From a virus (Duplodnaviria; Caudoviricetes), in the IMG/VR virus record IMGVR_UViG_3300035208_001807, positions 32,001 to 96,000 of that record: a DNA stretch of 64,000 bases. One strand, written 5' to 3'. Positions 15,600 through 41,602 of the stretch are shown here, one piece after another. How positions within the stretch are numbered: position 1 is the stretch's first letter; each line of letters begins with the position of its first letter. A program made the translations under genes and the position numbers. The notes beneath the pieces were generated by a model that made no database searches, was not told where the DNA came from, and saw only the letters and a list, made by a program, of their open reading frames with translations.

Positions 15600-16220
15600 A
15601 TGATCGTCAGTATGGATGTCGATGCTCAGCGTGGTTTTACTCCACTTTGTCCTAATGAGCTGCCCGTGGCAGATGGGGACAAGATTGTGGATGCCCTGAA
15701 CGCTCAGGCAAAGCTTGCCCAGGCACGAGTTGGTTCCAAGGATGCACATCCTCAGGATGCTCGTTGGACCAGAGAGACCCCCTTTACTCCTGTGAAGGAT
15801 TCGGCCAATGTTGATCTCTGCTGGCCTCGCCATTGCGTAGTGGGAACTGAGGGCAATAAGCTTCTGCCTGGCCTTCCCAATGTCATTGACTATGATTTCT
15901 TCGTCTTCAAGGGCTGCGAGCCTGACCTCCATCCCTATGGGGCTTGTTATCATGACCTGAAGGATACTCTCTCTACGGGTCTGATCGAGTACCTTAAAGG
16001 TATCGGGACCAAGACTGTCATTGTTGGTGGTCTAGCTACCGATTACTGCGTGAAGACAACTGCTCTTCAGCTTAAGCGAGCCAAGTTCGATGTTATCTTG
16101 AACTTGGAGGCTTGCCGCGGTGTTGCCCCTGAATCTTCTGATAAGGCTATCGAAGAGATGATAACAGCCGGGATCAAGGTTGTTGCCAAGACTAGTGATA
16201 TCAAGGAACTGCTCAAATGA
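15600..16220 (+). CDS. pncA: Nicotinamidase
   Basis: DVDAQRGF, DAHP, WPRHCV.GT and GLATDYCV motifs. Confidence 0.9.
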   Translation: MIVSMDVDAQRGFTPLCPNELPVADGDKIVDALNAQAKLAQARVGSKDAHPQDARWTRETPFTPVKDSANVDLCWPRHCVVGTEGNKLLPGLPNVIDYDFFVFKGCEPDLHPYGACYHDLKDTLSTGLIEYLKGIGTKTVIVGGLATDYCVKTTALQLKRAKFDVILNLEACRGVAPESSDKAIEEMITAGIKVVAKTSDIKELLK

Positions 16221-17380
16221 TCAAGTCTCTTCTCGATAACGACCTTTATAAACTCACCATGATGCAGGCTGTGTGGGCGAAGTTCCACAAGGCTCAGGCC
16301 GTGTATGAGTTTAAGTGCCGGACCAAGGGTGTGGTCTGGACTAAGGAGCAGTTCGAGAAGCTTGGCGAGAACTTTGCCTGCTTGCAGGGCCTTAAGGCTA
16401 CAACGGCAGAGCTGGACTACTTGTATGAAACCGGCCTTTTCAAGGACGAGTTCATCGTTTTCTTGCATGGCTTCGAGCTGGGTATCGAAAGCCTCGGGCT
16501 TGGATGGGATGAGAAGACAGGCGAGCTGGACTTGTCTATCTGTGGTTCTTGGCTGGACACCATCCTTCTTGAGGTTCCAGTCCTTGCCATCATCAACCAG
16601 ACCTATTTCCAGACTAAGAATAACACCGAGGGCATTTCTCGCATGAATGCCAAGATCGAAATGCTTGAGAAGTTGAGTGATCCTACCTTCAAGTTTGTGG
16701 ACTTTGGTACCCGGCGCCGCTACTCTCGTGAGTGGCAGGAGCGTATCGTCAAGGCCTTGAAACAATTCGCTCCCACCAACTTTGTTGGTACCTCGAATGT
16801 CAAGCTTGCCATGGATCACAATCTTCCTTGTGTGGGGACCATGGCTCATGAATGGATCATGGCCGGGCAAGGGATGTGCTGTGCACCCCGTCTAGCTCAG
16901 CGTGTCATGCTGGACAAGTGGGCTGAGGTTTATAAGGGCAAGCTGGGCATCGCCCTTAGCGATACTCTTGGAACCATCAACTTCCTTAAGGATTTTGATG
17001 GCCGGCTGGCCAGGATGTATGATGGAATGCGCCAGGATAGTGGGGACCCTTATAAGTGGCTTGAATGGGTCCTTTTCCACTATAATACTCTTGGCATTGA
17101 TGCCAAGACCAAGCGAGCTGTCTTCAGTGACAATCTGTCAATTGGTACCGCGCATAATATCCATCAGGCTGTTGCTGGACGTATCCAGGACTCCTATGGA
17201 ATCGGGACCAACCTCACTAATGACTGCGGGCCTGAACCGCTCAATATCGTCATCAAAATGACGGAGTGTAACAATCACCCAGTGGTTAAGTTTAGTGATG
17301 TTCCTACTAAGGCCATGGGGGATGACTTTCAGCAGCAGTTGATGCGCAAAGAGTACGAATATCAAACTACGCTTGTCTAA
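16217..17380 (+). CDS. pncB: Nicotinate phosphoribosyltransferase
   Basis: LLDNDLYKLTM, DFGTRRR, GTSNV, GTMAHE, RQDSGDP and GIGTNL motifs. Confidence 0.95.
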   Translation: MIKSLLDNDLYKLTMMQAVWAKFHKAQAVYEFKCRTKGVVWTKEQFEKLGENFACLQGLKATTAELDYLYETGLFKDEFIVFLHGFELGIESLGLGWDEKTGELDLSICGSWLDTILLEVPVLAIINQTYFQTKNNTEGISRMNAKIEMLEKLSDPTFKFVDFGTRRRYSREWQERIVKALKQFAPTNFVGTSNVKLAMDHNLPCVGTMAHEWIMAGQGMCCAPRLAQRVMLDKWAEVYKGKLGIALSDTLGTINFLKDFDGRLARMYDGMRQDSGDPYKWLEWVLFHYNTLGIDAKTKRAVFSDNLSIGTAHNIHQAVAGRIQDSYGIGTNLTNDCGPEPLNIVIKMTECNNHPVVKFSDVPTKAMGDDFQQQLMRKEYEYQTTLV

Positions 17381-29223: not shown

Positions 29224-30021
29224 ATGGCCAAGCAGGAAACTGACAACTATCTTATCGAGTTCAAGGATGTGTGTCAGAGCTATCCCGATAAGAAGGACGT
29301 AATCAAGGGCTTTGACCTGATCGTAGACCAGGAGCCTGGTACCGATAAGGTTATTGGTATCCTTGGTCCTTCTGGTTGTGGGAAGTCGACCATCCTGCGC
29401 TATCTCTCTGCCCTACAAAAGCCCACCTCTGGTGGTGTTTTCATCAAGGGCGAGCCGATTACGGACAACACTGTTGTAGGGATGGTGTTTCAACAGTATT
29501 CATCTTTACCATGGTATACTGTGTTGGAAAATGTTGCGCTTGGTCTTGAGCTTCGCGGAGTTCCTCTCAAGGAACGTACCGAGAAGGCCATGGAAATGAT
29601 CAAGCTGGTGGGCCTTGAAGGACATGAGAAGAAGCGCGCACTGTCACCTGCGCTCTCAGGTGGGCAGTTGCAGCGCGTTGCGATTGGCCGGAGTCTTCTA
29701 GCCAACTCACAAATTCTCTTGATGGATGAGCCTTTTGGTGCTCTTGATGTGAGTACCAGGCTTAGTATGCAGGAACTGCTGCGTAGCGTTCTTAGCATGC
29801 CAGATGACATGACAGTAATGTTTGTTACTCATGACATTCCGGAAGCTGTCTATCTCTCGGATGAGATCCAGATTATGGGAGCTAATCCTGGGCGTATAGT
29901 TGATACTATCGAACTCAACTGGCCTAAGGATAGAGAGCCCTCAATCAAGCGAGAGCCGAAGTTCGTAAAGATGGTCTACGATATCGAAGATCGTATGGCC
30001 AAGTTGAAGAAGCAGAAGTAG
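29224..30021 (+). CDS. ABC ATPase (SsuB/TauB-like)
   Basis: GPSGCGKST, LSGGQ, LLMDEPFGALD and VTHD motifs. Confidence 0.93.
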   Translation: MAKQETDNYLIEFKDVCQSYPDKKDVIKGFDLIVDQEPGTDKVIGILGPSGCGKSTILRYLSALQKPTSGGVFIKGEPITDNTVVGMVFQQYSSLPWYTVLENVALGLELRGVPLKERTEKAMEMIKLVGLEGHEKKRALSPALSGGQLQRVAIGRSLLANSQILLMDEPFGALDVSTRLSMQELLRSVLSMPDDMTVMFVTHDIPEAVYLSDEIQIMGANPGRIVDTIELNWPKDREPSIKREPKFVKMVYDIEDRMAKLKKQK

Positions 30022-30104
30022 AGATACTCAAGTAGCAACGAGGACGGGCTGTAAACCCGTTGCCCGCGAGGGCTTCGTAGGTGCAAGTCCTACTCTCTAC
30101 ACCA
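30018..30104 (+). tRNA. tRNA-Tyr (GTA)
   Basis: ACGGG-CT-GTA-AA-CCCGT, long variable arm, ACCA; overlaps the ATPase stop codon. Confidence 0.88.
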
Positions 30105-30115
30105 TTGAGGGACTT

Positions 30116-30451
30116 ATGCCTCCATCCAAACGTGTTCCTAACCAGGTTCCTGAAGGTACAAAGATTGTACCGTCAGAGCAGTGGTATAAGGACAGACACC
30201 TATACTTTACGACTATGCCTCGTGAGATGTGCATTGGGGTCGTGAAGGCTTGTGATTATGGCAAGCTCCTAGTAGTATGGCCCGAAGGTTGCTCTGGTGG
30301 CAATCCAGGCGGAGAGGCAGCTAATAAACTGCCTCGTAGTGAGTATGCAAGGGCTTGGTGGGTGAATGCCCCCGATATGCTTTTAGAAGGCTATGCCTTC
30401 GAGCCTGCTCCTGAACGTGCTCGTCCTAAGCTGGACCAACTAGTAGATTAG
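30116..30451 (+). CDS. Hypothetical protein (MPP start, LxxLVD end)
   Basis: Ends RARPKLDQLVD. Confidence 0.65.
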   Translation: MPPSKRVPNQVPEGTKIVPSEQWYKDRHLYFTTMPREMCIGVVKACDYGKLLVVWPEGCSGGNPGGEAANKLPRSEYARAWWVNAPDMLLEGYAFEPAPERARPKLDQLVD

Positions 30452-30524
30452 TCATGGTGGCCGAGTGGTTAGGTTGCGGCCTGCAAAGCCGCCTACGAGA
30501 GTCCGATTCTCTCCCATGACTCCA
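30451..30524 (+). tRNA. tRNA-Cys (GCA)
   Basis: GCGGC-CT-GCA-AA-GCCGC, U73, CCA. Confidence 0.9.
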
Positions 30525-30783
30525 TTTGAGGTCTTCATGAACCCCATTATCCAGAACTGGACTATCTCTCCCCATAAGTCAAAAGATGGACGTTGGTACT
30601 TCAGACTTCATGGTAACATCCATGGGCATCCTGACTACCCCCGGATCACTGATGGTGAGTACTGCCATACCTCCGAGATTCTCTCTATTGATTTTAGGGA
30701 TAATCTTGTAGTTACTAGGAGTCGCACCTATCAGCTTGGGAAGCCAGAACCCGAGAGCACTCTTAATAAGGCTATGGTTCTCA

Positions 30784-31566
30784 ATGAACTTACTAAGGCT
30801 TAAGAAGTTTGCCAATGGACGGGTCTATGCCCTCCAGACTCAAGATGGCTATCCTCTTGAGACGACGGACACATTCCTTCCCTCTTATACTAAAGAGGCA
30901 ACTGGGCGCCGGCAAAATACCCTATCTAATACTGATTTAGGTAGCAGGCATAACCGGTGGATGGTTGGTGTGTCAGTAATGTCAGGCTGTCCTGTGGGAT
31001 GTAAGTTCTGTGCGACTGGTCAGTTGTCTAGATGGCGTAAGCTGACCGCTGATGAGATCGTGGACCAGGTCAAGTTCATCGTTGGATCTAATCCCGACTA
31101 TAACCCAAATGAGGCCTATGAGTTCAAGATCAACTATACCCGCATGGGTGAGCCTTTTCTGAACTTAGAGGCCGTAAAAGAGGCCATAGGACGCATTTCT
31201 GAGCTATTCCCGAAGGCCCATCACTACGTCTCAACTATCGGAGTCAAAGGCTCGACTTTTGACTGGATTCATGATAGGATAACCCTACAGTTGAGTTTGC
31301 ACAGTTTAGATGAAACTCGACGCCATGCCTTGATCCCATATCCTACAATGTCTATTGAGGAGTTGGGGCAAGTTCGTACGAAGAGTGCCCTGAAGACGAC
31401 GGTGAATTTGACCTTAGTTGACAAGGCCGATTTTGACATACAGGCTCTTAAGAAGTACTTCGATCCTATGTACTTCTTCATCAAGCTGAGCCCTATCAAT
31501 CCTAATGCAACGTCTGAGAAGAATGGACTAGGCAAAGGGATTGTGCAGCAGATCAATCTGGTATAA
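30784..31566 (+). CDS. RlmN/Cfr-like radical SAM protein lacking the C-terminal catalytic-Cys segment
   Basis: SGCPVGCKFCATG (CxxxCxxC), LTADEIVDQV, RMGEPFLN, VSTIG and LSLH motifs. Confidence 0.85.
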   Translation: MNLLRLKKFANGRVYALQTQDGYPLETTDTFLPSYTKEATGRRQNTLSNTDLGSRHNRWMVGVSVMSGCPVGCKFCATGQLSRWRKLTADEIVDQVKFIVGSNPDYNPNEAYEFKINYTRMGEPFLNLEAVKEAIGRISELFPKAHHYVSTIGVKGSTFDWIHDRITLQLSLHSLDETRRHALIPYPTMSIEELGQVRTKSALKTTVNLTLVDKADFDIQALKKYFDPMYFFIKLSPINPNATSEKNGLGKGIVQQINLV

Positions 31567-31576
31567 GGAGTCTCCC

Positions 31577-31699
31577 ATGGAAGATATCAAGAATCAACTC
31601 GAAGCGGCCGGCTATGACTTTGCCGTCGCGATCGCGACCCAAGCGGAGATTAATAACCAGGCAGCCTGCGGCCAGCTTGCCATCGTAACCTCCGAATAA
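31577..31699 (+). CDS. 40-aa peptide equivalent to the RlmN C-terminus (AACGQL)
   Basis: MEDIKNQLEAAGYDFAVAIATQAEINNQAACGQLAIVTSE; own AAGGAG RBS; not in ORF track. Confidence 0.8.
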   Translation: MEDIKNQLEAAGYDFAVAIATQAEINNQAACGQLAIVTSE

Positions 31700-31718
31700 C
31701 AAACCCTTTTACCCTTGC

Positions 31719-31794
31719 GGGGACATAGCTTAGCGGCCAAAGCGTCCGGCTGTCTACCGGAAGACCTGGGGTTCAAATCCCCATGTCCTCGCCA
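31719..31794 (+). tRNA. tRNA-Asp (GTC)
   Basis: TCCGG-CT-GTC-TA-CCGGA, G73, CCA. Confidence 0.9.
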
Positions 31795-31807
31795 TATTTT
31801 CTCATAC

Positions 31808-31844
31808 ACGGCAGTGGTCCAACGGTTGGGCAGCGGCCTCCAAA
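31808..31844 (+). pseudogene. 5' half of disrupted tRNA-Trp (retains CT-CCA-AA)
   Basis: ACGGCAG pairs with CTGCCGT-GCCA at 32341-32351. Confidence 0.85.
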
Positions 31845-31895
31845 AGAATTAGTATCCAAACTCTAATTGGTGTTATAATACTCATGGAGGGTATT

Positions 31896-32243
31896 ATGGC
31901 AACCAAAGAATGGATTCAAACTCATCAGAAAGAGATGCGTGCTTATCGTAGAAAGCACTATCGAGCTAATAGAGAACAATATTATGCTCGTAATAGAAAA
32001 TCTTGGGCAGCTAAGCAAGCTTTCTTAGATAAATTAAGAGATGTTCCATGCCCTATATGCAAAGGAAGATTTGCTCCTTGCAGTATGGAGTTTGATCATC
32101 TAAGAGACAAAAAGACTTGTGTTAGCACACTTGCCAAGAATTCTTGGTCTAAGTTAAAGGCTGAGATAGCTAAATGTGAAGTTATCTGTGCTAATTGTCA
32201 TCGAGTTAGAACTCTTAATAGGAAGAAAGACAAAACACGTTAA
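31896..32243 (+). CDS. HNH endonuclease
   Basis: CPIC...EFDH...CEVICANCH; GGAGG RBS; stop codon lies within the 5' end of the replacement tRNA. Confidence 0.88.
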   Translation: MATKEWIQTHQKEMRAYRRKHYRANREQYYARNRKSWAAKQAFLDKLRDVPCPICKGRFAPCSMEFDHLRDKKTCVSTLAKNSWSKLKAEIAKCEVICANCHRVRTLNRKKDKTR

Positions 32244-32310
32244 TGGTGTAGTGGTAGCATTGGTGACTCCAAATCTCCAGGTGGGAGTTCGATTCTCTCT
32301 TAACGTGCCA
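32237..32310 (+). tRNA. tRNA-Trp (CCA), replacement copy
   Basis: ACGTTAA/TTAACGT acceptor, GGTGA-CT-CCA-AA-TCTCC, GCCA. Confidence 0.85.
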
Positions 32311-32320
32311 AATTAAGTAG

Positions 32321-32351
32321 ACAGTGGGTTCGACTCCTACCTGCCGTGCCA
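32321..32351 (+). pseudogene. 3' half of disrupted tRNA-Trp
   Basis: GTGGG-TTCGACT-CCTAC then CTGCCGT-GCCA. Confidence 0.85.
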
Positions 32352-32370
32352 TCTACTTTAAGGAACTAGC

Positions 32371-32871
32371 ATGAAGAAGATTGCCCAGTTTGTTGATGAA
32401 GCCTCAGGGCTTATCTTTAAGACTGCGAAAGCAGCTCTTAAGTCTGAGAATAAGCACCGCTCTATCAAGAAGATCTTTTCTTGGATAGGTAACCGCGAGA
32501 AGCGGACTCGGCGCAAGGGTGAAGACGACTGTAAATTCGCCAATGGTGGATGGTCTATCCAATGGTCGGAGGCTGATTACGAACGCCTCATCAATTGCAT
32601 TTGGCAGGCTGTTCATGATCATGAGAGGTGGATCTATAACCAGTATAAGGGAGGCCTTACTCTAGGCCAGATAAGGGGCCAAAGTGCACTAGGTCACTAC
32701 CTCAGTGATAACGATAGCTCTATTTATCACTGGTATACCTTGCAGATGGAAATCTGTCCTAAGTGTTTCCGGCAGTATGGACAGCCCTACTATGCAATCA
32801 ATTGTCATTGTGATGGCACTTCGGGCGGAAGTGGCCGCGCCCATACAATTCCCACTCGGGAATTAGACTAG
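32371..32871 (+). CDS. Hypothetical protein
   Basis: AAGGA RBS; 166-aa ORF. Confidence 0.65.
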   Translation: MKKIAQFVDEASGLIFKTAKAALKSENKHRSIKKIFSWIGNREKRTRRKGEDDCKFANGGWSIQWSEADYERLINCIWQAVHDHERWIYNQYKGGLTLGQIRGQSALGHYLSDNDSSIYHWYTLQMEICPKCFRQYGQPYYAINCHCDGTSGGSGRAHTIPTRELD

Positions 32872-32918
32872 TAATACTAGACAGTGTGTAAGAAATACTA
32901 TATAGTTTTACTTACAAT

Positions 32919-32992
32919 GCTTCTATAGCTCAACGGCAGAGCGCCTGGTTGAAGCCCAGGAGATGGTGGTTCGAAACCATCTGGGAGCACCA
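32919..32992 (+). tRNA. tRNA-Phe (GAA)
   Basis: CCTGG-TT-GAA-GC-CCAGG, ACCA. Confidence 0.9.
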
Positions 32993-32994
32993 AT

Positions 32995-33072
32995 GGGGGA
33001 TGGGACTGCACAGGGTGGTCGCCTGCTTTGCAAGCAGGATTCAGGTGGGAGCGTTACCCACATCCTCCACCA
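32995..33072 (+). tRNA. tRNA-Ala (TGC) with atypical T-loop
   Basis: G3:U70, CCTGC-TT-TGC-AA-GCAGG, T-loop AGCGTTA. Confidence 0.8.
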
Positions 33073-33160
33073 TATGAAAGCGGACCTAGCTAGGATGCCG
33101 GCCCCATTTAGGGGGTGCGGGCTCCCCTAGATAACCACCCGCTCACTTGAGGATGTGTAC

Positions 33161-33185
33161 TCCGAGGTAGCTTGAAGGTCAAGCA
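33161..33185 (+). pseudogene. 5' part of disrupted tRNA-Asn
   Basis: TCCGAGG-TA-GCTT-GAAGGTC-AAGC-A; pairs with TCTCGGA-GCCA at 33720-33730. Confidence 0.8.
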
Positions 33186-33565
33186 ATCTTGTCATGGATT
33201 TCAGCATGGCAGTTAGAGCAGACAAGGATACACTTGTCCAACTCTTTTACTGTCCTTTTCCATGAGACATTAGTTGATCCGATACCAAAGTCTTTTTGGC
33301 TAGGATCCTTGTGGTGGAATTGTAAAGCTCTGGGTGACTTCTTGTAGTTACAAATACTACAAGCTCCTCCGAGATATTCAATAGCTCTCAGCTTTCTGCG
33401 CTGACGCCACTCGATAACAGAGTCGACTGGAGATTTATTAGTAGAAAGTCTACTAATACGTAGTTTTTCTCGGTACTCAGATTTACAGCTAGATGAGCAG
33501 TATGGACTTGACTTAGTGATAAGTCTTCCGCAACTCTTGCAGTGGTTAGTTAGCTTGTGTGTCAT
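33179..33565 (-). CDS. HNH endonuclease, antisense to the tRNAs
   Basis: CSIC...LQFHHKDP...CILVCSNCH. Confidence 0.88.
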   Translation of the reverse strand: MTHKLTNHCKSCGRLITKSSPYCSSSCKSEYREKLRISRLSTNKSPVDSVIEWRQRRKLRAIEYLGGACSICNYKKSPRALQFHHKDPSQKDFGIGSTNVSWKRTVKELDKCILVCSNCHAEIHDKIA

Positions 33566-33687
33566 GTATGTTCCTGGGTAGGAAAATTGGTAACCCCAAC
33601 CGGCTGTTAACCGGTAGAGCGTAAGCTCACTGTTGGTTCGAGTCCAACCTCAGGAGCCATATTCATTGTAACATGCTTAACCGAGAA
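33186..33687. mobile_element. Cassette of antisense HNH and replacement tRNA-Asn inserted in tRNA-Asn
   Basis: Lies between the two tRNA-Asn parts. Confidence 0.78.
33572..33659 (+). tRNA. tRNA-Asn (GTT), replacement copy with long variable arm
   Basis: TCCTGGG/CTCAGGA, ACCGG-CT-GTT-AA-CCGGT, GCCA. Confidence 0.85.
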
Positions 33688-33693
33688 TGTTAA
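33665..33693 (-). promoter_or_regulatory. Sigma70-like promoter for the antisense HNH
   Basis: Minus strand TTAACA-N17-TACAAT; the -35 is the old anticodon loop TGTTAA. Confidence 0.65.
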
Positions 33694-33730
33694 GGAGAAG
33701 TTTCTGGTTCGATTCCAGATCTCGGAGCCA
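33688..33730 (+). pseudogene. 3' part of disrupted tRNA-Asn (retains T-GTT-AA)
   Basis: TGTTAA-GGAG..TCTGG-TTCGATT-CCAGA-TCTCGGA-GCCA. Confidence 0.8.
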
Positions 33731-33895
33731 TTGAGAATATGATGCATAACCGTTTCCGTAAGAACTTTGATCGTTGTGAGGATTTCATTCCTAAGAAGGG
33801 GACGAATCCTAACAAGTTACTTACTGCTTGTAAGCGATACTGGAACCGGTGGCGGAGACGCCAACAGAAGAAGGCTAAGAACGAGGAGTTCTAGT

Positions 33896-33929
33896 TCCGG
33901 GATCGTCTAGCGGTAGGACATCGGCCTTT
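33896..33929 (+). pseudogene. 5' half of disrupted tRNA-Gln
   Basis: TCCGGGA-TC-GTCTAGCGGTAGGAC-A-TCGGC-CT-TT; pairs with TCCCGGA-TCCA at 34602-34612. Confidence 0.85.
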
Positions 33930-34574
33930 TCGGTTGACGTGCGTCACTTACATTGCTAAGATATTAGCAGGTGGTCCAAAGGTAAGACAGTAGGTTTTGA
34001 TCCTACCAATGCAGGTTCGAGTCCTGCCCTGCTAACCACCTTAGGTGGCTTAGTATGACAACTAATTGGAGAAACAGACCAAGGGCCAAGAGAAGTGTTG
34101 TTTGGACAATTCCACGTGCTGAGTTTGCTGAGCTTTGTCGCACCTCAACTTCTATAGGCCAGATTCTAAAGAAGTTTGGTCTTGTTAATAAAGGTGGTAA
34201 TAAAACCACGGTAGAGCGCCGAGCTAAAGAAGATGGAGTTAGTCTTTCGCATATTGCGCGCGGCTTGGCTTCAAACTTTGGAAGGAAGTTTGGTCCTGCA
34301 TATAATAGATTACCTCTAAGTGAGGTCTTTTGTGTAGGGAGTAGGGCTAGCCGAAAAGCTGTTAAGAGTAGAGTTCTAGGTCTTGGACTCATTCCGAATA
34401 GGTGTGTCCTTTGTGGCTGTCCTCCACTCTGGCATGATAAGTTACTCATTCTTGTCTTAGACCATATTAATGGTATCCCAAATGATAACCGTATAGAGAA
34501 TCTGAGATTAGTTTGTCCAAACTGTAACAGTCAGACTTCCACATTTACGGGACGTAATAACAGGAAGAGAGTTT
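33930..34574 (+). mobile_element. Cassette of promoter, replacement tRNA-Gln and HNH inserted in tRNA-Gln
   Basis: TTGACG-N17-TAAGAT at 33934-33962; tRNA; HNH. Confidence 0.8.
33965..34038 (+). tRNA. tRNA-Gln (TTG), replacement copy
   Basis: U1:A72, GTAGG-TT-TTG-AT-CCTAC, ACCA. Confidence 0.9.
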
Positions 34575-34576
34575 AG
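34055..34576 (+). CDS. HNH endonuclease
   Basis: CVLC...LDHINGIPNDNRIENLRLVCPNCNS. Confidence 0.9.
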   Translation: MTTNWRNRPRAKRSVVWTIPRAEFAELCRTSTSIGQILKKFGLVNKGGNKTTVERRAKEDGVSLSHIARGLASNFGRKFGPAYNRLPLSEVFCVGSRASRKAVKSRVLGLGLIPNRCVLCGCPPLWHDKLLILVLDHINGIPNDNRIENLRLVCPNCNSQTSTFTGRNNRKRV

Positions 34577-34612
34577 CCGCGAAGCGGGGTTCGAGTCCCT
34601 GTCCCGGATCCA
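34575..34612 (+). pseudogene. 3' half of disrupted tRNA-Gln
   Basis: AGCCGC-GAAG-CGGGG-TTCGAGT-CCCTG-TCCCGGA-TCCA. Confidence 0.85.
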
Positions 34613-35021
34613 ACGAGGATAGAATGTTCAACCCAGGCGACATCGTGATGTCTAAAGATGGAGAGGATGGTCCGTTTGTTGTCCTTAAGGACGATGGGGT
34701 CAACTTCTCTACTTGTCACATCGGTAAGCCAAGTGTTGGAGTTGTATCCAAACAATCCCTATTTGTCCCGATTAAGCGACAAGGACAATATGGAGGACAC
34801 TGGAAAACGAACGCCTTTGACAGAATTGGGGCTATCTATCGCTGGGCAGAGCCTACTGCTTATACTCGCTTTAAGCAGAACCATAAACTTGTACTATCCG
34901 ATGTTGAGCCAGGGGGCCCAACACGAGAAGAGATTCTTAAGCGTATTCAGTCCGGGCATCGTGTCCGGAAGAAGAAGATAGCTAAGAGGAAATCCCGACT
35001 GGCGTACATTACGGAGTAGTT

Positions 35022-35387
35022 ATGGCCTTACGTAGATTCGAATGTGTTGAGGGTACCTCAAACAAGTTCTGGGAGATCGATGATGAGCCCCGGCCGGGAC
35101 GTGGGTATCCAATCTCTTATGGACGCATAGGGGTCACTGCTAATCCCTATTATAAGATAATGAGTGGTTCAGAGTTCCGGAAGATGGTTGCTTCCAAGCT
35201 TGCGAAGGGGTATCGCGAGGTGGTTCCTTTACCCCATGGCGGCACTGGACATGAGCCGCGGCCTTTGCTAAGACGCCTCTCTGGCCCTCAACAGAGGAAC
35301 TTAAAGCGTAAAGCAGTAAGGATTGAGAAAGCTGTTCGTAAGAGAGCAATGCGTACAACGCCTCATCTCTCTTCGTTGGTAGATTGA
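35022..35387 (+). CDS. WGR-domain protein with LxxLVD C-terminus
   Basis: SNKFWEI, YGRIG and KLAKGYRE motifs; ends HLSSLVD. Confidence 0.75.
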   Translation: MALRRFECVEGTSNKFWEIDDEPRPGRGYPISYGRIGVTANPYYKIMSGSEFRKMVASKLAKGYREVVPLPHGGTGHEPRPLLRRLSGPQQRNLKRKAVRIEKAVRKRAMRTTPHLSSLVD

Positions 35388-35388
35388 C

Positions 35389-35464
35389 GCGCTTCTAGCT
35401 CAACTGGTAGAGCATCACCTTGATAAGGTGGGGGTTTCCGGTTCAAATCCGGGGAAGCGCACCA
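35389..35464 (+). tRNA. tRNA-Ile (GAT)
   Basis: TCACC-TT-GAT-AA-GGTGG, ACCA. Confidence 0.9.
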
Positions 35465-35469
35465 TAAAC

Positions 35470-35543
35470 TCAGGGATCGTCTAATGGTAGGACGGCACCC
35501 TCTGAAGGTGCGTATAGTGGTTCGAATCCATTTCCCTGAACCA
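35470..35543 (+). tRNA. tRNA-Gln (CTG)
   Basis: GCACC-CT-CTG-AA-GGTGC, U1:A72. Confidence 0.9.
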
Positions 35544-35549
35544 TTTAAG

Positions 35550-35712
35550 TTAGTACTGATAAATCCGTAGGGAGCCTCTTCGGGGTTTAAAACCTTATGA
35601 GACCGAATAGAAACGGAGTATTCTAAGTCGGCCATGTTAGGCCCACGTTAAAAGCATGCAGCGTACTGTCCGACAATGCATGTGTAGAGCCCTACGGTGT
35701 TATGAGTACTAA
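35550..35712 (+). ncRNA. Candidate structured ncRNA with a long closing stem
   Basis: TTAGTACT...CCGTAGGG pairs with CCCTACGG...AGTACTAA; no plus-strand ORF. Confidence 0.4.
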
Positions 35713-35815
35713 AAGAGTTTTGATGGGGCCTGGAGCTTAGTGGCTCCCATTGCATTAGAGGTCATAATCAGATGCAAGAAAATGACCTGGGCCTATGAGG
35801 ACTTAAGGAGAATAT

Positions 35816-36346
35816 ATGTCAGCGGATCATAAGACATGTTGGATCGAATGTGAGTGCGGGGATTATGATTGTGCCTCTCGTATTGAGGTATGGCACGATG
35901 AGGCTGATAACACTCATGAGTTTTACTTCTCCTATCAACCAGAACAGTATCCTAAGTATGAGACAGATAGAAATTATCTTAGCTATATTAATGGGCGCGA
36001 TAATTGGCACTGGTTTCAATTTAAGTGTTGGTTGAGGGGAGTCAAGTTATATTTCCGCAATATATGGTATGCAATTACTGGTAAGCCCCAGTGGTGGTAT
36101 GCTAACATGTCTTGGGGTCCAGAGCAAGCTAAGAAGTTATCTGATTTTATTCGTGAGAATTTACCTGATGAACCTAAGGTTCTTGATCGTAGATTAGATG
36201 GTACTGCATTTGATCCTAGAGTAAAAGGTACTATAGGAGATGTGCAATTAGCATGTCCTAAATGCGGGAATAATAAGTGGACCTATTCAGATGGTCCAAT
36301 CATCTGTTCTAGGTGTTATACTGAAAGACCGGAAGAGAAGAAGTAA
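35816..36346 (+). CDS. Hypothetical protein with C-terminal Zn ribbon
   Basis: AAGGAG RBS; CPKC...CSRC. Confidence 0.65.
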   Translation: MSADHKTCWIECECGDYDCASRIEVWHDEADNTHEFYFSYQPEQYPKYETDRNYLSYINGRDNWHWFQFKCWLRGVKLYFRNIWYAITGKPQWWYANMSWGPEQAKKLSDFIRENLPDEPKVLDRRLDGTAFDPRVKGTIGDVQLACPKCGNNKWTYSDGPIICSRCYTERPEEKK

Positions 36347-36486
36347 TGGATAACTATCCTTTTACTTATGAAAAGTGTGTTTCCTGGTATCAGGTAAAGC
36401 GTAAGCCTACCTCGAAGTGTTCTGTTTGCCTGAAGATTTGGCGAGCAACAGAAGCTGCCCGAAAATGGCTCAAGTCTATGTGACTT

Positions 36487-36562
36487 GGGTCTGTAGCTTA
36501 GCAGCTAAAGCAACCGCCCTTTAAGCGGTATATCGTGGGTGCGAGTCCCATCAGGCCCACCA
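36487..36562 (+). tRNA. tRNA-Lys (TTT)
   Basis: ACCGC-CC-TTT-AA-GCGGT (C33), ACCA. Confidence 0.85.
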
Positions 36563-36580
36563 ATTTGAGGTAGCTAACGT

Positions 36581-36657
36581 GCCCTGGTAGCTCAGCCTGG
36601 TAGAGCTTCCGCCTTGTAAGCGGAGGGTCGTCGGTTCGAATCCGACCTGGGGCTCCA
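36581..36657 (+). tRNA. tRNA-Thr (TGT)
   Basis: TCCGC-CT-TGT-AA-GCGGA. Confidence 0.92.
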
Positions 36658-36659
36658 AT

Positions 36660-36734
36660 GCTACGATGGTCCAATGGTCACGACATCGGAATTTCAATCC
36701 GATAATCCGGGTTCAATTCCCGGTCGCAGTGCCA
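36660..36734 (+). tRNA. tRNA-Glu (TTC)
   Basis: TCGGA-AT-TTC-AA-TCCGA, GCCA. Confidence 0.85.
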
Positions 36735-36909
36735 TTGATGTAGACGCGGCCCGACGGTGCAAGCGGAAGCTATTCGGGCTTGACGGATAAGCTAGAGATT
36801 CATGCAAAGTATGGTTATTATGTCATACAGCGGCACTGACGTGGTGCTAAAGGGCATAGCTCACGTACTCTAAGTGATATCTGGTTATCATGTGACTTGG
36901 AAGGCTTGA

Positions 36910-36984
36910 GCTCGCTTAGGCCAGCGGTAGACCGCCTGTTTTACATACAGGATGTCGGGGGTTCGATTCCCTCAGCGAGCACCA
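36910..36984 (+). tRNA. tRNA-Val (TAC)
   Basis: CCTGT-TT-TAC-AT-ACAGG, ACCA. Confidence 0.9.
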
Positions 36985-37008
36985 TTTGCGAACGATCCTG
37001 GAGGATCT

Positions 37009-37389
37009 ATGTTTCTTAAGATACTAGTCGCGATACTTACTATAGCTGTTATAGTTATAGTAATCGGCGCAGCCCTGCTCTTCAATGCTTACATTGCTTC
37101 TAGCATCTACCAGATGCTTTTGCAGCCCATTATCAAGGTTGCTCTACCCCTCTACTTCTTCATGGGTTTATGCCTGGTGTGGGGTGTCATGATTGACTCA
37201 GGACTTAGGACTAATCTCCTGACTGATATTCACAAACGTCTTTGCAATCGTGACGACCTTGGTATAGCAACCAACGGGAATGAAGTCCATAAGACTTTCA
37301 TGAATAAGGCTTTCTTCAAGGATATATTCATCATTCCGCTCACAGCTTGGGGAGTAGCTTTTATCATTCATTGGGTTGTGGGGTGCTAG
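37009..37389 (+). CDS. Membrane protein
   Basis: GGAGG RBS before ATG 37009; hydrophobic helices. Confidence 0.65.
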   Translation: MFLKILVAILTIAVIVIVIGAALLFNAYIASSIYQMLLQPIIKVALPLYFFMGLCLVWGVMIDSGLRTNLLTDIHKRLCNRDDLGIATNGNEVHKTFMNKAFFKDIFIIPLTAWGVAFIIHWVVGC

Positions 37390-37822
37390 GATGACTAAGC
37401 TTCATGATGCAATCTCTGAGTATCAGTGTCCCGGTTGTGTCTGCGGCGGTGCCCCATCGCAGAATTGTGAAGCTCTCAAATTGGACAAGGATGGTTGTTC
37501 TAAGCACGTTGTTGGAACATTCATTATGGGATTAGGCCACATTGTCCTCGGCTTACCAAAGGGTTTTGCTAGGGTTAGCGAAACGCAGGGTAAGATTCGT
37601 ATCTTCCCTACTAAGGAAGATTACGCTTCACATGAGTACGATCACTTCAATGTGCCTGTATGGAAGTATAAGAATGAAAAGGGGCATGTTCTAGTTCGGG
37701 TATATATGCCGCGAATCGATACGAGTAGCATCCATATCCACATGGATGGCAGCTACTTTCATGAGATCCGAGCTACTTATACAGTTACAGACGAGATGCT
37801 GAAGGGAATGACTTCCTAGAAT

Positions 37823-37896
37823 GGGTTCCTAGTTCAGTGGTAGAACAGCAGACTCTTAATCTGCCTATCTGGGTCCGATTCCCAGGGAGCCCACCA
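37823..37896 (+). tRNA. tRNA-Lys (CTT)
   Basis: GCAGA-CT-CTT-AA-TCTGC. Confidence 0.9.
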
Positions 37897-37899
37897 ATT

Positions 37900-37973
37900 G
37901 CGGGATTGGTGTAATGGTAGCAAGTCACGTTGCCAACGTGAAGGCGCGGGTCCGATTCCCGCATCCCGCTCCA
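37900..37973 (+). tRNA. tRNA-Gly (GCC)
   Basis: TCACG-TT-GCC-AA-CGTGA, U73. Confidence 0.92.
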
Positions 37974-37974
37974 T

Positions 37975-38046
37975 GGCTCGGGGTCCGGTGACCAACTTGG
38001 TTTCATAAGCCGGGTTTGCGTGGATCATCACCACGACGAGCTACCA
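37975..38046 (+). tRNA. Atypical tRNA (CAT)
   Basis: TT-CAT-AA loop, short D-arm, non-canonical T-loop ATCATCA, ACCA. Confidence 0.55.
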
Positions 38047-38060
38047 TTTAAGGAGCTAAA

Positions 38061-38327
38061 ATGAAGAAGGTTCTGTTCATGTTCATGCTATTCTTTGTTA
38101 TCCATCTTTCGGGTGGCAAAGATGTTGAGAGATACTACTTCCCTAACGCTGAATACAAGTGGCGCATTTGGGGAGGCGACGGCTCTGCCTATGTCGATGT
38201 AACAAGGAAGAAGAGTGGTTGTTGTGGCGACTCTGTATTTGTTGGATCTCTTCTGGCCGGATGGTACATCGTCGACTTTGGCGATGGGACTAAGCTCCCT
38301 AGTTCCTATGCGCCTATGACACCATAA
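38061..38327 (+). CDS. 88-aa protein with hydrophobic N-terminus
   Basis: AAGGAG RBS; resembles 48148-48414. Confidence 0.65.
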   Translation: MKKVLFMFMLFFVIHLSGGKDVERYYFPNAEYKWRIWGGDGSAYVDVTRKKSGCCGDSVFVGSLLAGWYIVDFGDGTKLPSSYAPMTP

Positions 38328-38433
38328 AGATCTTGACAAATCCATATAGGTAAAAAGTACATATGTGGATTATGGCCGATTCTAGATTGCCATGATTTTC
38401 CTGGAATCTGTGCAGCTGCAGTTAGTTTTAGAC

Positions 38434-38508
38434 GCGCCGATGGTCTAATGGAAGGGCCCTGGGTTACGGTCCCAGTGTATGTGGGTTCGAGTCCTACTCG
38501 GCGTACCA
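38434..38508 (+). tRNA. tRNA-Arg (ACG)
   Basis: CTGGG-TT-ACG-GT-CCCAG, ACCA. Confidence 0.88.
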
Positions 38509-38859
38509 TTTAGGGAGTTTGCAATGCCGCTATTCGATTTCATCAAGAAGAAGTTAGTGGAGAGGGAAATGCGTCTGTCTGATCCTAATCTGCTTCCTAA
38601 GGCTAAGCCTTCGAAGCCGAAGAAGGCTAAAGAGCCTAAGAAGTCTGCTCCTCGTCGTGAAGAGACTAATTGGCTTGAGCGGCGCCATCTCCATGTGGAA
38701 ACTACTGAAACCTCTTGGGCCTTCAATCCTAATACTCAGTTTGAGATTGAGACTAATGAGCGTTGTGCAGATTATGTATTTACTACGCCAGCTGGTAAGT
38801 TCGAAGCACGTATTCCCTATCGTACGGTTATCGAAATACATATAGAGGACTAATTTTTG

Positions 38860-38898
38860 GCCCTCTTAGCTCAGTGGTTAGAGCAGGAAACTCATAAT
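38860..38898 (+). pseudogene. 5' half of disrupted tRNA(CAT) (Met or Ile2)
   Basis: GCCCTCT-TA-GCTCAGTGGTTAGAGC..CT-CAT-AA; pairs with AGAGGGC-ACCA at 39461-39471. Confidence 0.85.
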
Positions 38899-38945
38899 GT
38901 TTACTTAGTAGTATGAGTGTGTTATAATAGCTTTAGGAGGCTATT

Positions 38946-39392
38946 ATGAACACACACTTATGTCCACGATGTAACAAGAGGGAAGAGTTTGGTATTAATA
39001 GACTAAAGAAAGATGGGATGCAGACTTCTTGTAAGAAGTGTCGCCAGCGATACCAGCGGGACTGGTATCAGAAGCATAAAAGGTTGCACAAAGCTAGAGC
39101 ATGGAAGTCAAATGAGTTAGTAAGAGTGCGCAATAGGAAGTTACGTGACTCTTACTTGCGATCTCATCCCTGTATTGATTGTGGTGAGAAAGATATAGAG
39201 GTTTTAACTTTCGATCATGTAAGAGGAGTAAAGCGCCTAGATATATGCAGTATGATAAGGCGTGCATTTACATGGAATACTATACTTAAAGAGATAGGAT
39301 TATGTGAAGTCAGGTGTGCTAACTGTCATACAAAAGTAACTAGGAAGAGACGTGAGGACATCAAGCTTAACGGTCGAGCAGCGTCCTCATAA
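38946..39392 (+). CDS. HNH endonuclease
   Basis: CIDC...LTFDH...CEVRCANCH; AGGAGG RBS; stop codon lies in the replacement tRNA anticodon loop. Confidence 0.88.
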   Translation: MNTHLCPRCNKREEFGINRLKKDGMQTSCKKCRQRYQRDWYQKHKRLHKARAWKSNELVRVRNRKLRDSYLRSHPCIDCGEKDIEVLTFDHVRGVKRLDICSMIRRAFTWNTILKEIGLCEVRCANCHTKVTRKRREDIKLNGRAASS

Positions 39393-39430
39393 GACGTTGG
39401 AACTGGGTTCAACTCCCAGGATGTCCACCA
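39356..39430 (+). tRNA. tRNA(CAT) (Met or Ile2), replacement copy
   Basis: GGACATC/GATGTCC, GCGTC-CT-CAT-AA-GACGT, ACCA. Confidence 0.88.
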
Positions 39431-39435
39431 TTAAT

Positions 39436-39471
39436 GCCTTGTCGAAGGTTCGAATCCTTCAGAGGGCACCA
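39436..39471 (+). pseudogene. 3' half of disrupted tRNA(CAT)
   Basis: GAAGG-TTCGAAT-CCTTC-AGAGGGC-ACCA. Confidence 0.85.
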
Positions 39472-39475
39472 TTAT

Positions 39476-39569
39476 CCTACTGGGTGGGTCGGTATCCTCG
39501 GGAGATTTATAACCTCCAGTTGCCCTAGATTGGGGCCGTAACCTGGGTCAGCACCAGGCAGTAGGACCA
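39476..39569 (+). tRNA. Atypical tRNA-Ile (TAT) with long variable arm
   Basis: CCTACTG/CAGTAGG acceptor, GGAGA-TT-TAT-AA-CCTCC, T-loop GTCAGCA. Confidence 0.65.
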
Positions 39570-39582
39570 TTAAGGAACTATC

Positions 39583-40125
39583 ATGAAGAAGACATTGTAC
39601 AAGACAAAGTTCTTATCTCTTATCTCCGAGAAGGGATGGGTTTGGGCGGAGCGTACTGGGCGAGATTATATTGACCACAGGCTAGATGTCTCAGCTATCT
39701 TGGCCTATACAGAAGATGACAAAGTTCTTCTTGTTGAGCAGTATCGCATACCTGTTGGCGCGAATGTCATCGAACTACCCGCTGGTTTGATTGATCCCGG
39801 TGAGCGTGCTTCCCAAGCAGCCATGCGTGAGTTGCTCGAAGAGACTGGCTATACCGCAGAGTGGAACTCTCGATTCCCTCAGCTTCTAGCTAAGGTTCCT
39901 TCTTCGGCTGGCTTGACTTCTGAGTGTACCTATGTGTATATTATGCCTAAGGTATCTAAGAAGCGTGGGTGGAAGCCTAATCCGAAGGAGCCGTTGAAGG
40001 TCCATAAGGTTGATATTTATGGGCTAGCTAAGTGGATTGCCAAGAAGAAGAATGAGGGGTGCTACATCGATCCTCGTGTTTATGTGGCCGTGGCAACAGG
40101 TTGGAACGGTTTTACGCCCAGGTAG
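39583..40125 (+). CDS. NUDIX hydrolase (ADP-ribose pyrophosphatase-like)
   Basis: LVEQYR.P..ELPAGLIDPGE...AAMRELLEETGY Nudix box. Confidence 0.9.
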   Translation: MKKTLYKTKFLSLISEKGWVWAERTGRDYIDHRLDVSAILAYTEDDKVLLVEQYRIPVGANVIELPAGLIDPGERASQAAMRELLEETGYTAEWNSRFPQLLAKVPSSAGLTSECTYVYIMPKVSKKRGWKPNPKEPLKVHKVDIYGLAKWIAKKKNEGCYIDPRVYVAVATGWNGFTPR

Positions 40126-40133
40126 ACCAATTT

Positions 40134-40209
40134 GTACCGGTAGCCCAACGGCAGAGGCATCTGGTTTAAGCCCAGACAAGTGTGGGTTCGAATCCCTCTC
40201 GGTACGCCA
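40134..40209 (+). tRNA. tRNA-Leu (TAA) with short variable loop
   Basis: TCTGG-TT-TAA-GC-CCAGA; G73. Confidence 0.8.
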
Positions 40210-40214
40210 TATAT

Positions 40215-40303
40215 GGGCCGTAGTTCTAAGGGCAGAACAACCAGCGATGGCAGCATGCCTAGACCTAGGGAGATGGGAGGTTCAAGTCCTCCCCGGTCCA
40301 CCA
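40215..40303 (+). tRNA. tRNA-like gene with aberrant anticodon arm
   Basis: Normal D-arm, T-arm and CCA; no 5-bp stem with 7-nt loop. Confidence 0.5.
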
Positions 40304-40315
40304 AGTTGAGGAATT

Positions 40316-40606
40316 ATGAGTCGACAGAAACATTGGCAGCGTGAAACGTTCTATCGAGAGGTCTTTGTAAGAGACCAGTGCTGCCGTTTCTGTGGCGATA
40401 AGAAGGGTCCTTTCAATGCCCACCATATTACTAGCCGAGACTTGATGCCTAATGGTGGATATGTAAAGGAGAATGGTATCACTCTTTGTGAGCCGTGTCA
40501 TTTGATTGTTGAGAAGGCGGGGCCGGAGCAGCCTAACATCTTGTATGGCTTGATAGGCTCTAGTTACAAGAAAGCCTTAGCAGAATCAGAGAAGTTAAGT
40601 AAATAG
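40316..40606 (+). CDS. Small HNH endonuclease
   Basis: RDQCCRFC...AHHI...NGITLCEPCH. Confidence 0.85.
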   Translation: MSRQKHWQRETFYREVFVRDQCCRFCGDKKGPFNAHHITSRDLMPNGGYVKENGITLCEPCHLIVEKAGPEQPNILYGLIGSSYKKALAESEKLSK

Positions 40607-40695
40607 CCCGAGTCGACTAATCGGCAGGTCAACTAGCGTTAGACAGTTGGTCCATCGTATAGTGGATGGGGGTTCGAATCCCTCCTTGGGCACCA
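40606..40695 (+). tRNA. Leu-like tRNA with aberrant anticodon arm
   Basis: GCCCGAG/CTTGGGC, long variable arm, canonical T-arm; expanded anticodon loop. Confidence 0.5.
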
Positions 40696-40899
40696 GTTGA
40701 GGTAGGACCTAATGGCACCTAAAGTTAAGAGATCTGCTTACATCCGAATAGTATTTACCAAGAAGCTTCTTAAGGAATGTGGCCTTAAGAGTTTCGCCGA
40801 GTTCAAGCGTGCTGTTCGAAGGCGGGGCTATACTAGTATCACTGCTTTTCTTGATGATGCTATAGACGCACTAATCAAGAAGCTTGAGGCTAAGAAGCG

Positions 40900-40982
40900 C
40901 CGCCTGTAGCCGAGGGAGTTTCCTAAACTCCTATCCGTAAGTGGAGCTGAGAATAAAGGTTCGAGTCCTTTCAGGCGGACCA
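40900..40982 (+). tRNA. tRNA-Arg (CCT) with truncated D-arm and extended variable region
   Basis: CCGCCTG/CAGGCGG, GGAGT-TT-CCT-AA-ACTCC. Confidence 0.7.
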
Positions 40983-41277
40983 TTTGAGGAGCTAAGATGT
41001 ATCCGATGTTCATTCCGATCTTTCTACCAGCACCTGCTGCACCAGTAACTGCAGCATCTTCAGCTGCTGCTGTAGCTGAGGCAGCCTCTGTTAAGGCAGC
41101 CGCTGTTACTGCTGGACTGGCTGCTCTTGGTATTCTAGTAGCTGTTGGTGGTATAGTTCTCGTTGATGAAGCTATGAAGCGTCATACCCCAGAGAAGCGT
41201 GGTCTCTTTCAAGAGATTAGCGCTATCTGGAATGTAATTGGTACTGTCAGAGCTGAAGCGAAGGCTAAGAAGTAATT

Positions 41278-41364
41278 GCGAGTATGGCGAAATGGCAGAC
41301 GCAACTGGCTTAGGACCAGTCGTCCGTAAGGGCATGATGGGTTCGACTCCCTCTACTCGCACCA
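41278..41364 (+). tRNA. tRNA-Leu (TAG)
   Basis: ACTGG-CT-TAG-GA-CCAGT, long variable arm. Confidence 0.92.
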
Positions 41365-41528
41365 ATAAGGAAGTACTAAATGGATATTGTACTGATAGCT
41401 TTGCCATGGGTCATTGGTGGCATATGGGGTGTGTATTGTGCCCATAAGCGCTATGGACTTCTAGTTCTACTTGTGGGCTGTGTTGCTGGTGGTGTAGCAG
41501 TAGGACTACTTAAGATATTTATCCGTTC

Positions 41529-41602
41529 GCTCCTATAGTGTAGTGGTAGCCCGCCTCCATGGTAAGGAGGAAGCTCCAGTTCAATTCTGGGTGGGAGCTC
41601 CA
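41529..41602 (+). tRNA. tRNA-Thr (GGT)
   Basis: CCTCC-AT-GGT-AA-GGAGG. Confidence 0.88.

Follow-up and report, generated by a model that had tools for sequence, protein, structure and literature searches.

A split RlmN/Cfr-fold radical SAM enzyme in phages with its Cys-loop tail on a separate 40-residue peptide

RlmN and Cfr are textbook class A radical S-adenosylmethionine (SAM) methylases, and both of their catalytic cysteines are regarded as essential. How, then, would such an enzyme work if one of these cysteines were moved to a separate peptide and the other were dropped? This question is raised by two adjacent genes in a 64,000-nucleotide stretch of DNA from a large phage, positions 32,001 to 96,000 of IMG/VR record IMGVR_UViG_3300035208_001807 (149,407 bases, estimated completeness 68%), the whole of which is here called the window. 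The first gene encodes a 260-residue RlmN/Cfr-fold radical SAM core (P0001) and the second a 40-residue tail peptide (P0002; coordinates of both are given in Table 1). A preliminary description of the locus had suggested that the peptide may be consumed in a peptide-RNA conjugation. The comparative analyses reported here indicate that the pair is a descendant of RlmN/Cfr, and it is predicted to work alike.

Architecture and conservation of the split enzyme

The core carries the cluster motif CxxxCxxC (C69, C73 and C76), MGEP (residues 121-124) and SLH (171-173), all in register with the motifs of Escherichia coli RlmN in a HMMER alignment to 3rf9_A. It ends in ...GIVQQINLV and AACGQL is absent from it, and the three cluster cysteines are the only cysteines in the whole 260-residue sequence. 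In the same alignment Gly62 falls on Cys118, and C69 on C125, of wild-type E. coli RlmN ('wmvGvsvmsgC' in the core, 'ATLC118VSSQVGC125' in 3rf9_A, core residue 58 corresponding to RlmN residue 114). AACGQL is instead encoded by the tail peptide, the reading frame of which is one base off that of the core, and which is laid out as a helix, a last barrel strand (YDFAV) and the AACGQL loop, with C31 as its sole cysteine. The observations from which the preliminary description set out are hence confirmed: a core with RlmN hallmarks that stops before AACGQL, this motif on a 40-residue open reading frame (ORF) with its own AAGGAG, and glycine at the position of Cys118. No other cysteine in the window could replace it. 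No 6-mer Shine-Dalgarno sequence precedes the core gene in the window, unlike the peptide gene, and among distinct homologous contexts a 6-mer of this type stands before the peptide gene in 16 of 54 and before the core gene in 1 of 54. The core is mildly basic (isoelectric point (pI) 9.1; family median 8.2).

The best family matches of the core are the models for RlmN (TIGR00048, 61.9 bits, E 4.8e-17) and Cfr (TIGR04432, 46.2 bits; likeness to Cfr at E 1.1e-7), covering mainly residues 55-186; both scores lie below the respective cut-offs of 290 and 550 bits, as do those of the best family matches as a whole (cut-offs 290-633 bits). Pfam Radical_SAM is matched at 30.2 bits (cut-off 29.5), besides a weak, sub-threshold match to Fer4_12, and no peptide-recognition domain was found in the core with Pfam. 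For an AlphaFold2 model of the core (mean predicted local distance difference test (pLDDT) 92), ranks 1-11 in Foldseek are all RlmN or Cfr (E 4e-12 to 3e-6), followed by TYW1 (4e-4). With VIA-align the model is closest to E. coli RlmN (Z 22.9, root-mean-square deviation 2.6 A over 229 residues), then to Cfr (Z 16.2), the next family reaching 12.2. Model residues 1-260 superpose on RlmN residues 80-350 only, and the core is therefore without RlmN residues 1-79 (the N-terminal domain) and without the Cys355 loop.

Compared to RlmN, the dual C2-methyltransferase of 23S ribosomal RNA (rRNA) A2503 and transfer RNA (tRNA) A37 (E. coli structures PDB 3RF9, 3RFA, 4PL1 and 5HR6/5HR7; S. thermophilus 6FZ6; NCBIfam family TIGR00048), the phage enzyme has the same fold, CxxxCxxC, MGEP and SLH, and the same tail elements (helix, last strand and AACGQL methyl-carrier loop), but the latter are on a separate peptide. 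Two genes thus take the place of one, glycine that of Cys118, and nothing corresponds to residues 1-79. RlmN furthermore has a basic C-terminal extension past the Cys loop, whereas the phage pair has no extension and its peptide is acidic (pI 4.05); the enzyme is phage-encoded here, and its score of 62 bits contrasts with the 290-bit cut-off. Cfr, the C8-methyltransferase of 23S rRNA A2503 (PDB 9P0P; TIGR04432), has the same class A fold and motifs and differs from the pair in the same ways; there is no evidence of activity on A2503 or of antibiotic resistance for the phage enzyme. In summary, the cluster motif, the SAM motifs and the catalytic-domain fold of RlmN/Cfr are all present, while the carrier cysteine is found in trans only, Cys118 (Cys105 in Cfr) and the N-terminal domain are missing and the score lies below the equivalog cut-off. 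As four defining features are lacking, the pair is classed apart from RlmN proper.

The peptide alone has no match among PDB sequences even at E 10, being too short, and its homology was for this reason assessed by profile comparison. Profile A3, built from 32 peptide homologues, was aligned with profile A4, which covers the C-terminal ends of 13 Cys118-bearing single-chain relatives; the hhalign probability is 95.4% (E 1.9e-8) and the cysteines are in register. Judged by this comparison, the peptide is the homologue of the C-terminal part of RlmN in which the methyl-carrier Cys355 is found. The peptide family comprises at least 201 clusters of 38-57 residues, in which A30, C31, G32, Q33 and L34 are invariant, and conservation spans the full length, a variable core region being absent. 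Over 608 sequence pairs the ratio of non-synonymous to synonymous substitution (dN/dS) is 0.057 (median dN 0.066, dS 1.29), and the peptide is under strong purifying selection.

A complex of core and peptide was modelled, as the preliminary description had recommended, from alignments, a 4Fe-4S cluster and SAM, with three controls. The interaction prediction score from aligned errors (ipSAE) was 0.84 in the median run and 0.00 in the best of the three controls. Of 80 solved complexes 58 came up to the mark for this score, as did 2 of 110 mismatched pairs; the runs agreed in at least 85% of contacts, with a partner pLDDT of at least 78. In the predicted complex the peptide takes the place of the missing last barrel strand. 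The model pairs its residues 13-17 with core strand 231-235 and brings its residues 11-38, including the Cys31 loop, into contact with core residues 75-78 (the cluster loop, beside Cys76) as well as T119 and M121 at MGEP. This outcome may mirror the likeness to solved single-chain RlmN, so that it supports binding rather than proves it.

The split is far from unique to the window, and its layout goes well past what chance would give. Among 5.8 billion protein clusters searched, 2427 relatives of the core were retrieved (clustering at 90%), the best 120 of which are all 258-284 residues long, and distant homologues end at the same residue. In a set of 83 related loci (80 from IMG/VR and three from cultured phages), a separate AACGQ peptide ORF is found in 81, and all 81 cores detected have glycine at the Cys118 position. 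The two genes are mostly 19-20 nucleotides apart and stand to each other in any of the three possible frames (60/10/7), and four loci have the peptide ORF at a distance of 1.1-1.7 kb downstream of the core, with other genes between. Cultured carriers are Kehishuvirus 'tikkala' (on Bacteroides cellulosilyticus), Pectobacterium phages Wc4 and Arno and Moorella phage MTATph1. The cores of 'tikkala' (62% identity) and MTATph1 (43% identity) are followed by a gene for a 40-43-residue AACGQL peptide, and in Wc4 the peptide gene is one gene further downstream. The pair is also present in Vibrio phage D479 (OZ195776.1), where one 93-residue ORF (L084 3800-4081) holds two tandem, near-identical helix-strand-AACGQM modules; in Yersinia phage P778 the core gene was found by a search that covered this gene only. 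Read from these comparisons, the split is native, conserved and old. Literature searches turned up no publication on an RlmN-like system that is split or encoded by phages.

Additional genes accompany the pair in some lineages. In about 42 IMG/VR loci a MoaA/viperin-like radical SAM gene and a Methyltransf_23-like gene lie between core and peptide (255 and 148 residues, respectively, at L120 6774-8068), and at L170 6778-8639 another small radical SAM gene (295 residues) and a 270-residue ORF do so. P0399, P0402 and P0403 are in-frame fusions of the methyltransferase-like domain with the peptide. Such inserted genes are absent from most lineages, the window included.

Loss of Cys118 across the family

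An exhaustive HMMER search (E <= 0.001) yielded 2720 representatives, which fall into three groups according to their tail and to the residue aligned with Cys118. The first group has cysteine at this position and mostly an xxCGQ tail in cis. It includes the phage-borne, RlmN-like enzymes of Salmonella phage Arash (gp133c) and Vibrio phage 166E36-1 (VPH166E361_0171), which differ from the split enzyme in being single chains of about 309 residues with a GGGCGQL tail in cis. In the second, Gly-type group the tail is never present in cis. The third group is marked by I, M, N, V or T in place of Cys118 and by a cis tail of the GSNCGQ type, and no cysteine is conserved in it beyond the three of the cluster and the one in the tail. 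This group ('EKWVxIxSTQxGCPxxCxFCDA ... GSNCGQ', e.g. the radical SAM protein of Bacteroides phage Versailles) resembles the split enzyme in lacking Cys118, but differs in its cis tail, in the variable residue in place of the invariant glycine and in that some members are bacterial rather than phage-encoded.

In a quick maximum-likelihood tree of 88 cores, the root of which is arbitrary and the careful search for which is unfinished, a Cys118-bearing clade (23 rows) is separated from all Cys118-less cores (65 rows) by a branch with a Shimodaira-Hasegawa-like approximate likelihood ratio test (SH-aLRT) value of 98; Arash and 166E36-1 stand on the side opposite to the split enzyme. The loss of Cys118, as traced in alignments and tree, is clearly not confined to split forms, and the larger Cys118-less group holds single-chain members. 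The preliminary description had asked whether the split and the loss co-occur, and the answer goes one way only: split cores invariably have glycine, but the loss is also seen in single-chain enzymes. Additional cysteines occur in relatives at core position -53 (60/78), core position -4 (4/78) and peptide position +7 (13/41), yet no replacement cysteine is conserved among the relatives, and the -53, -4 and +7 cysteines are all absent from the window.

Two further variants were encountered among the relatives. P0130 (601 residues, on a contig of SRR12687606) is a core homologue whose cluster motif is interrupted, or immediately followed, by an intein (Intein_splicing, LAGLIDADG). P0181, P0190 and P0194 (L173 59-1693) are bacterial, Cys118-less RlmN-like cores that have the tail cysteine in cis and a C-terminal fusion to an isochorismatase-like hydrolase; the L173 fusion gene is neighboured by GDT1, tocopherol-cyclase-like, GMC oxidoreductase and PAP2 genes.

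Chemistry of the pair

In RlmN, Cys355 carries the methyl group and a methylene radical adds to C2 or C8, giving a protein-RNA cross-link, for the resolution of which Cys118 (Cys105 in Cfr) is indispensable (PMC9692996, a 2022 review). According to the same review, Cys118 is now seen as a general base, the deprotonation step triggering radical fragmentation, and not as an obligatory disulfide partner (PMC9692996). Our best reading, to which we give about an even chance, is that the pair forms a two-subunit class A (RlmN/Cfr-type) radical SAM methyl synthase with a Cys-loop peptide acting in trans and a finishing step independent of Cys118. Cys31 of the bound peptide would take a methyl group from SAM, as in RlmN, and a 5'-deoxyadenosyl radical would convert S-methyl-Cys31 to a methylene radical, which would attack an adenine-type substrate at an sp2 carbon. 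Resolution of the adduct would then fall to another base, or to a solvent or substrate group, so that the peptide would be a reusable, exchangeable subunit and the product a C-methylated base. The single-chain Cys118-less relatives must also resolve their adduct, which suggests that the Cys118-less group has another finishing route; with Cys118 acting as a general base, another base could indeed finish the reaction.

Several points weigh against this reading. Cys118 mutants of E. coli RlmN stay cross-linked (PMC9692996), and a replacement base is assumed for the phage enzyme. The glycine is invariant (81/81), which this reading does not account for. A sister Gly-type subclade (P0182-type, 'KIGVSLxSGCxVGCxYCFT') keeps the strand LxxxGFxYAxR in cis and ends before the Cys loop, and no AACGQL peptide was found near one of its cores (L088 3039-3878), where the coding strand of one contig was read. 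The inserted radical SAM and methyltransferase-like genes, and the fusions, hint that the peptide is handled in a more elaborate way than a simple subunit, and catalysis is a prediction for every member of the family. The stronger Shine-Dalgarno sequence, the separation by 1-2 kb, the duplication in D479 and the insertions and fusions mildly favour a free-standing carrier role for the peptide.

The interpretation in the preliminary description is supported in part: the enzyme is indeed divided over two genes, the equivalent of Cys118 is missing, and the reasoning built on this loss is sound within its limits. The conjugation that it put forward would take the carrier role of the peptide furthest: the 40-residue peptide would be consumed and end up joined via Cys31-S-CH2 to an adenine in RNA (tRNA A37 or 23S A2503) or in some other molecule that bears adenine. 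We regard this as unlikely, and the same low probability applies to the peptide as a diffusible one-carbon or cross-linking carrier that stays joined through Cys31-S-CH2 to the adenine of RNA or of a nucleotide of the nicotinamide adenine dinucleotide (NAD)/ADP-ribose type. Cys118 is absent and neither core nor peptide has any cysteine besides those of the cluster and the carrier, and RlmN Cys118 mutants trap exactly such a cross-link (PMC9692996; titles of PDB 5HR6/5HR7), as the preliminary description had stated. The peptide gene is moreover free-standing, preceded by a stronger Shine-Dalgarno sequence than the core gene, separable from it, and present as tandem modules in D479. However, permanent cross-linking would destroy the whole enzyme in each event where the tail is in cis, and the single-chain Cys118-less relatives therefore argue against conjugation, since they would be suicide enzymes, which is improbable for a broad family. 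The base role of Cys118 could also pass to another group (PMC9692996), the 149,407-base record contains a single copy of the peptide gene, the linkage to tRNA genes is not conserved, and the peptide is conserved over its full length like part of an enzyme, with residues 11-38 buried against the core in the model.

The reading as a methyl synthase also has to be set against other radical chemistry, in which the tail cysteine would be a hydrogen-atom donor or the site of a thiyl radical and the product would not be a methylated base. Scores far under the RlmN and Cfr equivalog cut-offs, the group-wide loss of Cys118, the sister subclade without a Cys loop and the bacterial relatives fused to isochorismatase-like hydrolases in non-RNA contexts would all fit such a change of function. 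Nevertheless, the tail motif from A30 to L34 is invariant and aligns with the methyl-carrier loop of the Cys118-bearing relatives, and the SAM and cluster motifs match those of RlmN, which makes this alternative decidedly improbable.

Pairs of a radical SAM maturase and the precursor of a ribosomally synthesised and post-translationally modified peptide (RiPP) likewise couple a small peptide gene to a radical SAM gene, and the peptide could by analogy be the substrate or product of the enzyme, with the extra radical SAM and methyltransferase-like genes of some lineages (the approximately 42 loci and the fusions P0399, P0402 and P0403) taking part. The phage peptide is, however, homologous to the enzyme's own missing tail and uniformly conserved, without a variable core region; the three cysteines of the core leave no room for a SPASM/twitch auxiliary cluster, no peptide-recognition domain was found in the core with Pfam, and the extra genes are missing from most lineages and from the window. 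A RiPP-like system is hence very unlikely. Finally, a frameshifted or pseudogenised single-chain RlmN-like gene, or a sequencing artefact, which two adjacent ORFs one base out of frame might bring to mind and which the preliminary description had named together with single-chain homologues as fatal to its proposal, has next to no probability, as comparison refutes it: in 81 of 83 loci, and in three frames, the core stops at the same place, another start follows and a Shine-Dalgarno sequence is often present, the best 120 homologues have 258-284 residues, and the dN/dS of the peptide is 0.057.

Gene neighbourhood, target and implications

The window carries 23 tRNA genes, and the pair lies between two of these (Table 1), in agreement with its earlier placement within a tRNA cluster. 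As a general feature this placement did not hold: in 27 of 29 related loci there is no tRNA gene within 4 kb, and linkage to tRNA was rejected as general functional evidence. Nor is there a conserved third gene, no neighbour cluster besides the peptide being common to more than three of 25 lineages. Such a lack of common neighbours is typical of variable accessory regions, and the role of the pair is therefore probably auxiliary or related to counter-defence rather than to core replication.

Table 1. Features of the window discussed in the text (positions are those of the window).
Feature	Position	Strand	Remarks
PncA-like (isochorismatase) ORF	15618-16184		side by side with the next ORF, 13 kb upstream of the pair
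NAPRTase/NAMPT-like ORF	16217-17380		35% identity to the NAPRTase of L092; phrog_448 match
tRNA-Cys	30451-30524		flanks the pair upstream; real tRNA
88-residue ORF	30537-30803		overlaps the core start; weak PHROG match only
RlmN/Cfr-fold radical SAM core (P0001), 260 residues	30784-31566	+	ATG 30784; TAA 31564-31566
AAGGAG Shine-Dalgarno sequence of the peptide gene	31565-31570	+	overlaps the core TAA; 6 nucleotides upstream of the ATG
Tail peptide (P0002), 40 residues	31577-31699	+	ATG 31577; TAA 31697-31699; AACGQL is residues 29-34
tRNA-Asp	31719-31794		flanks the pair downstream; real tRNA

Genes related to NAD salvage recur in the neighbourhood of the pair. At L092 the pair ends a co-oriented run of genes for a PncA-like isochorismatase, an NAPRTase, an NMNAT-like cytidylyltransferase and an unknown protein of 241 residues; no closer relatives of this locus and of P0136, above 44% identity, were found in IMG/VR. 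An NMNAT-NUDIX gene and a NAMPT-like gene lie directly upstream of the pair at L130, L132 and L133, as do NUDIX-like and NAMPT-like matches at L052. The single-chain enzyme of Vibrio phage 166E36-1 follows a gene for nicotinamide phosphoribosyltransferase (NAMPT), and a microbial PARG-like gene ends 7 nucleotides before the start of the intein-bearing homologue P0130. In the window, the PncA-like and the NAPRTase/NAMPT-like ORFs adjoin and are, going by their matches, a phage NAD-salvage module. Ten split-type lineages have an NAPRTase-family gene in the same record, located within 3 kb of the core in four, at 13-15 kb in three (the window included) and far away in three, and there is none in seven complete or near-complete genomes. 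As the lineages are non-independent and accessory genes cluster, this proximity is a lead and not a result.

The target of the pair may accordingly be sought in two directions, an adenine in RNA (tRNA A37 or rRNA) or a small adenine nucleotide of the NAD/ADP-ribose type, which we consider about equally likely. RNA is an uncertain target given that residues 1-79 are missing, that the peptide is acidic and that NAD-salvage genes are nearby; one crAss-like lineage in which the second gene downstream of the pair encodes an RtcB RNA ligase (L082 5231-6442) points back to RNA.

Some other features of the window surround the locus. An ABC-transporter-like phage operon (26214-30021) comprises a fusion of an NMT1/THI5-like binding domain to an OmpA-like domain (519 residues), a BPD_transp_1 permease (268 residues), a 240-residue ORF and an ABC ATPase (283 residues). 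The tRNA array extends from 30018 to 41602, with HNH endonuclease ORFs at 31884-32243 and 34055-34576 among the tRNA genes; ARAGORN also places a tRNA-like gene at 40606-40695, the anticodon of which has four bases (taga). A few kb past the array, a 510-residue ORF (46549-48081) matches phrog_850, 'RNA-binding protein' (E 3e-41).

As the pair is repeatedly found next to NAD-salvage, PARG-like and RtcB genes, it may take part in the conflict between phage and host over nucleotides or RNA. Should conjugation prove true, phages would mark or disable an adenine-bearing target by attaching a gene-encoded peptide to it by means of a radical SAM enzyme, which would be the most interesting outcome, and as cultured phages carry the system the chemistry is directly testable. 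A widespread phage lineage has thus moved one catalytic cysteine of a class A radical SAM enzyme to a separate peptide and dropped the other, and either the chemistry is finished by an undescribed route or the enzyme naturally yields a covalent adduct of the peptide; in each case the known range of this enzyme class would widen.

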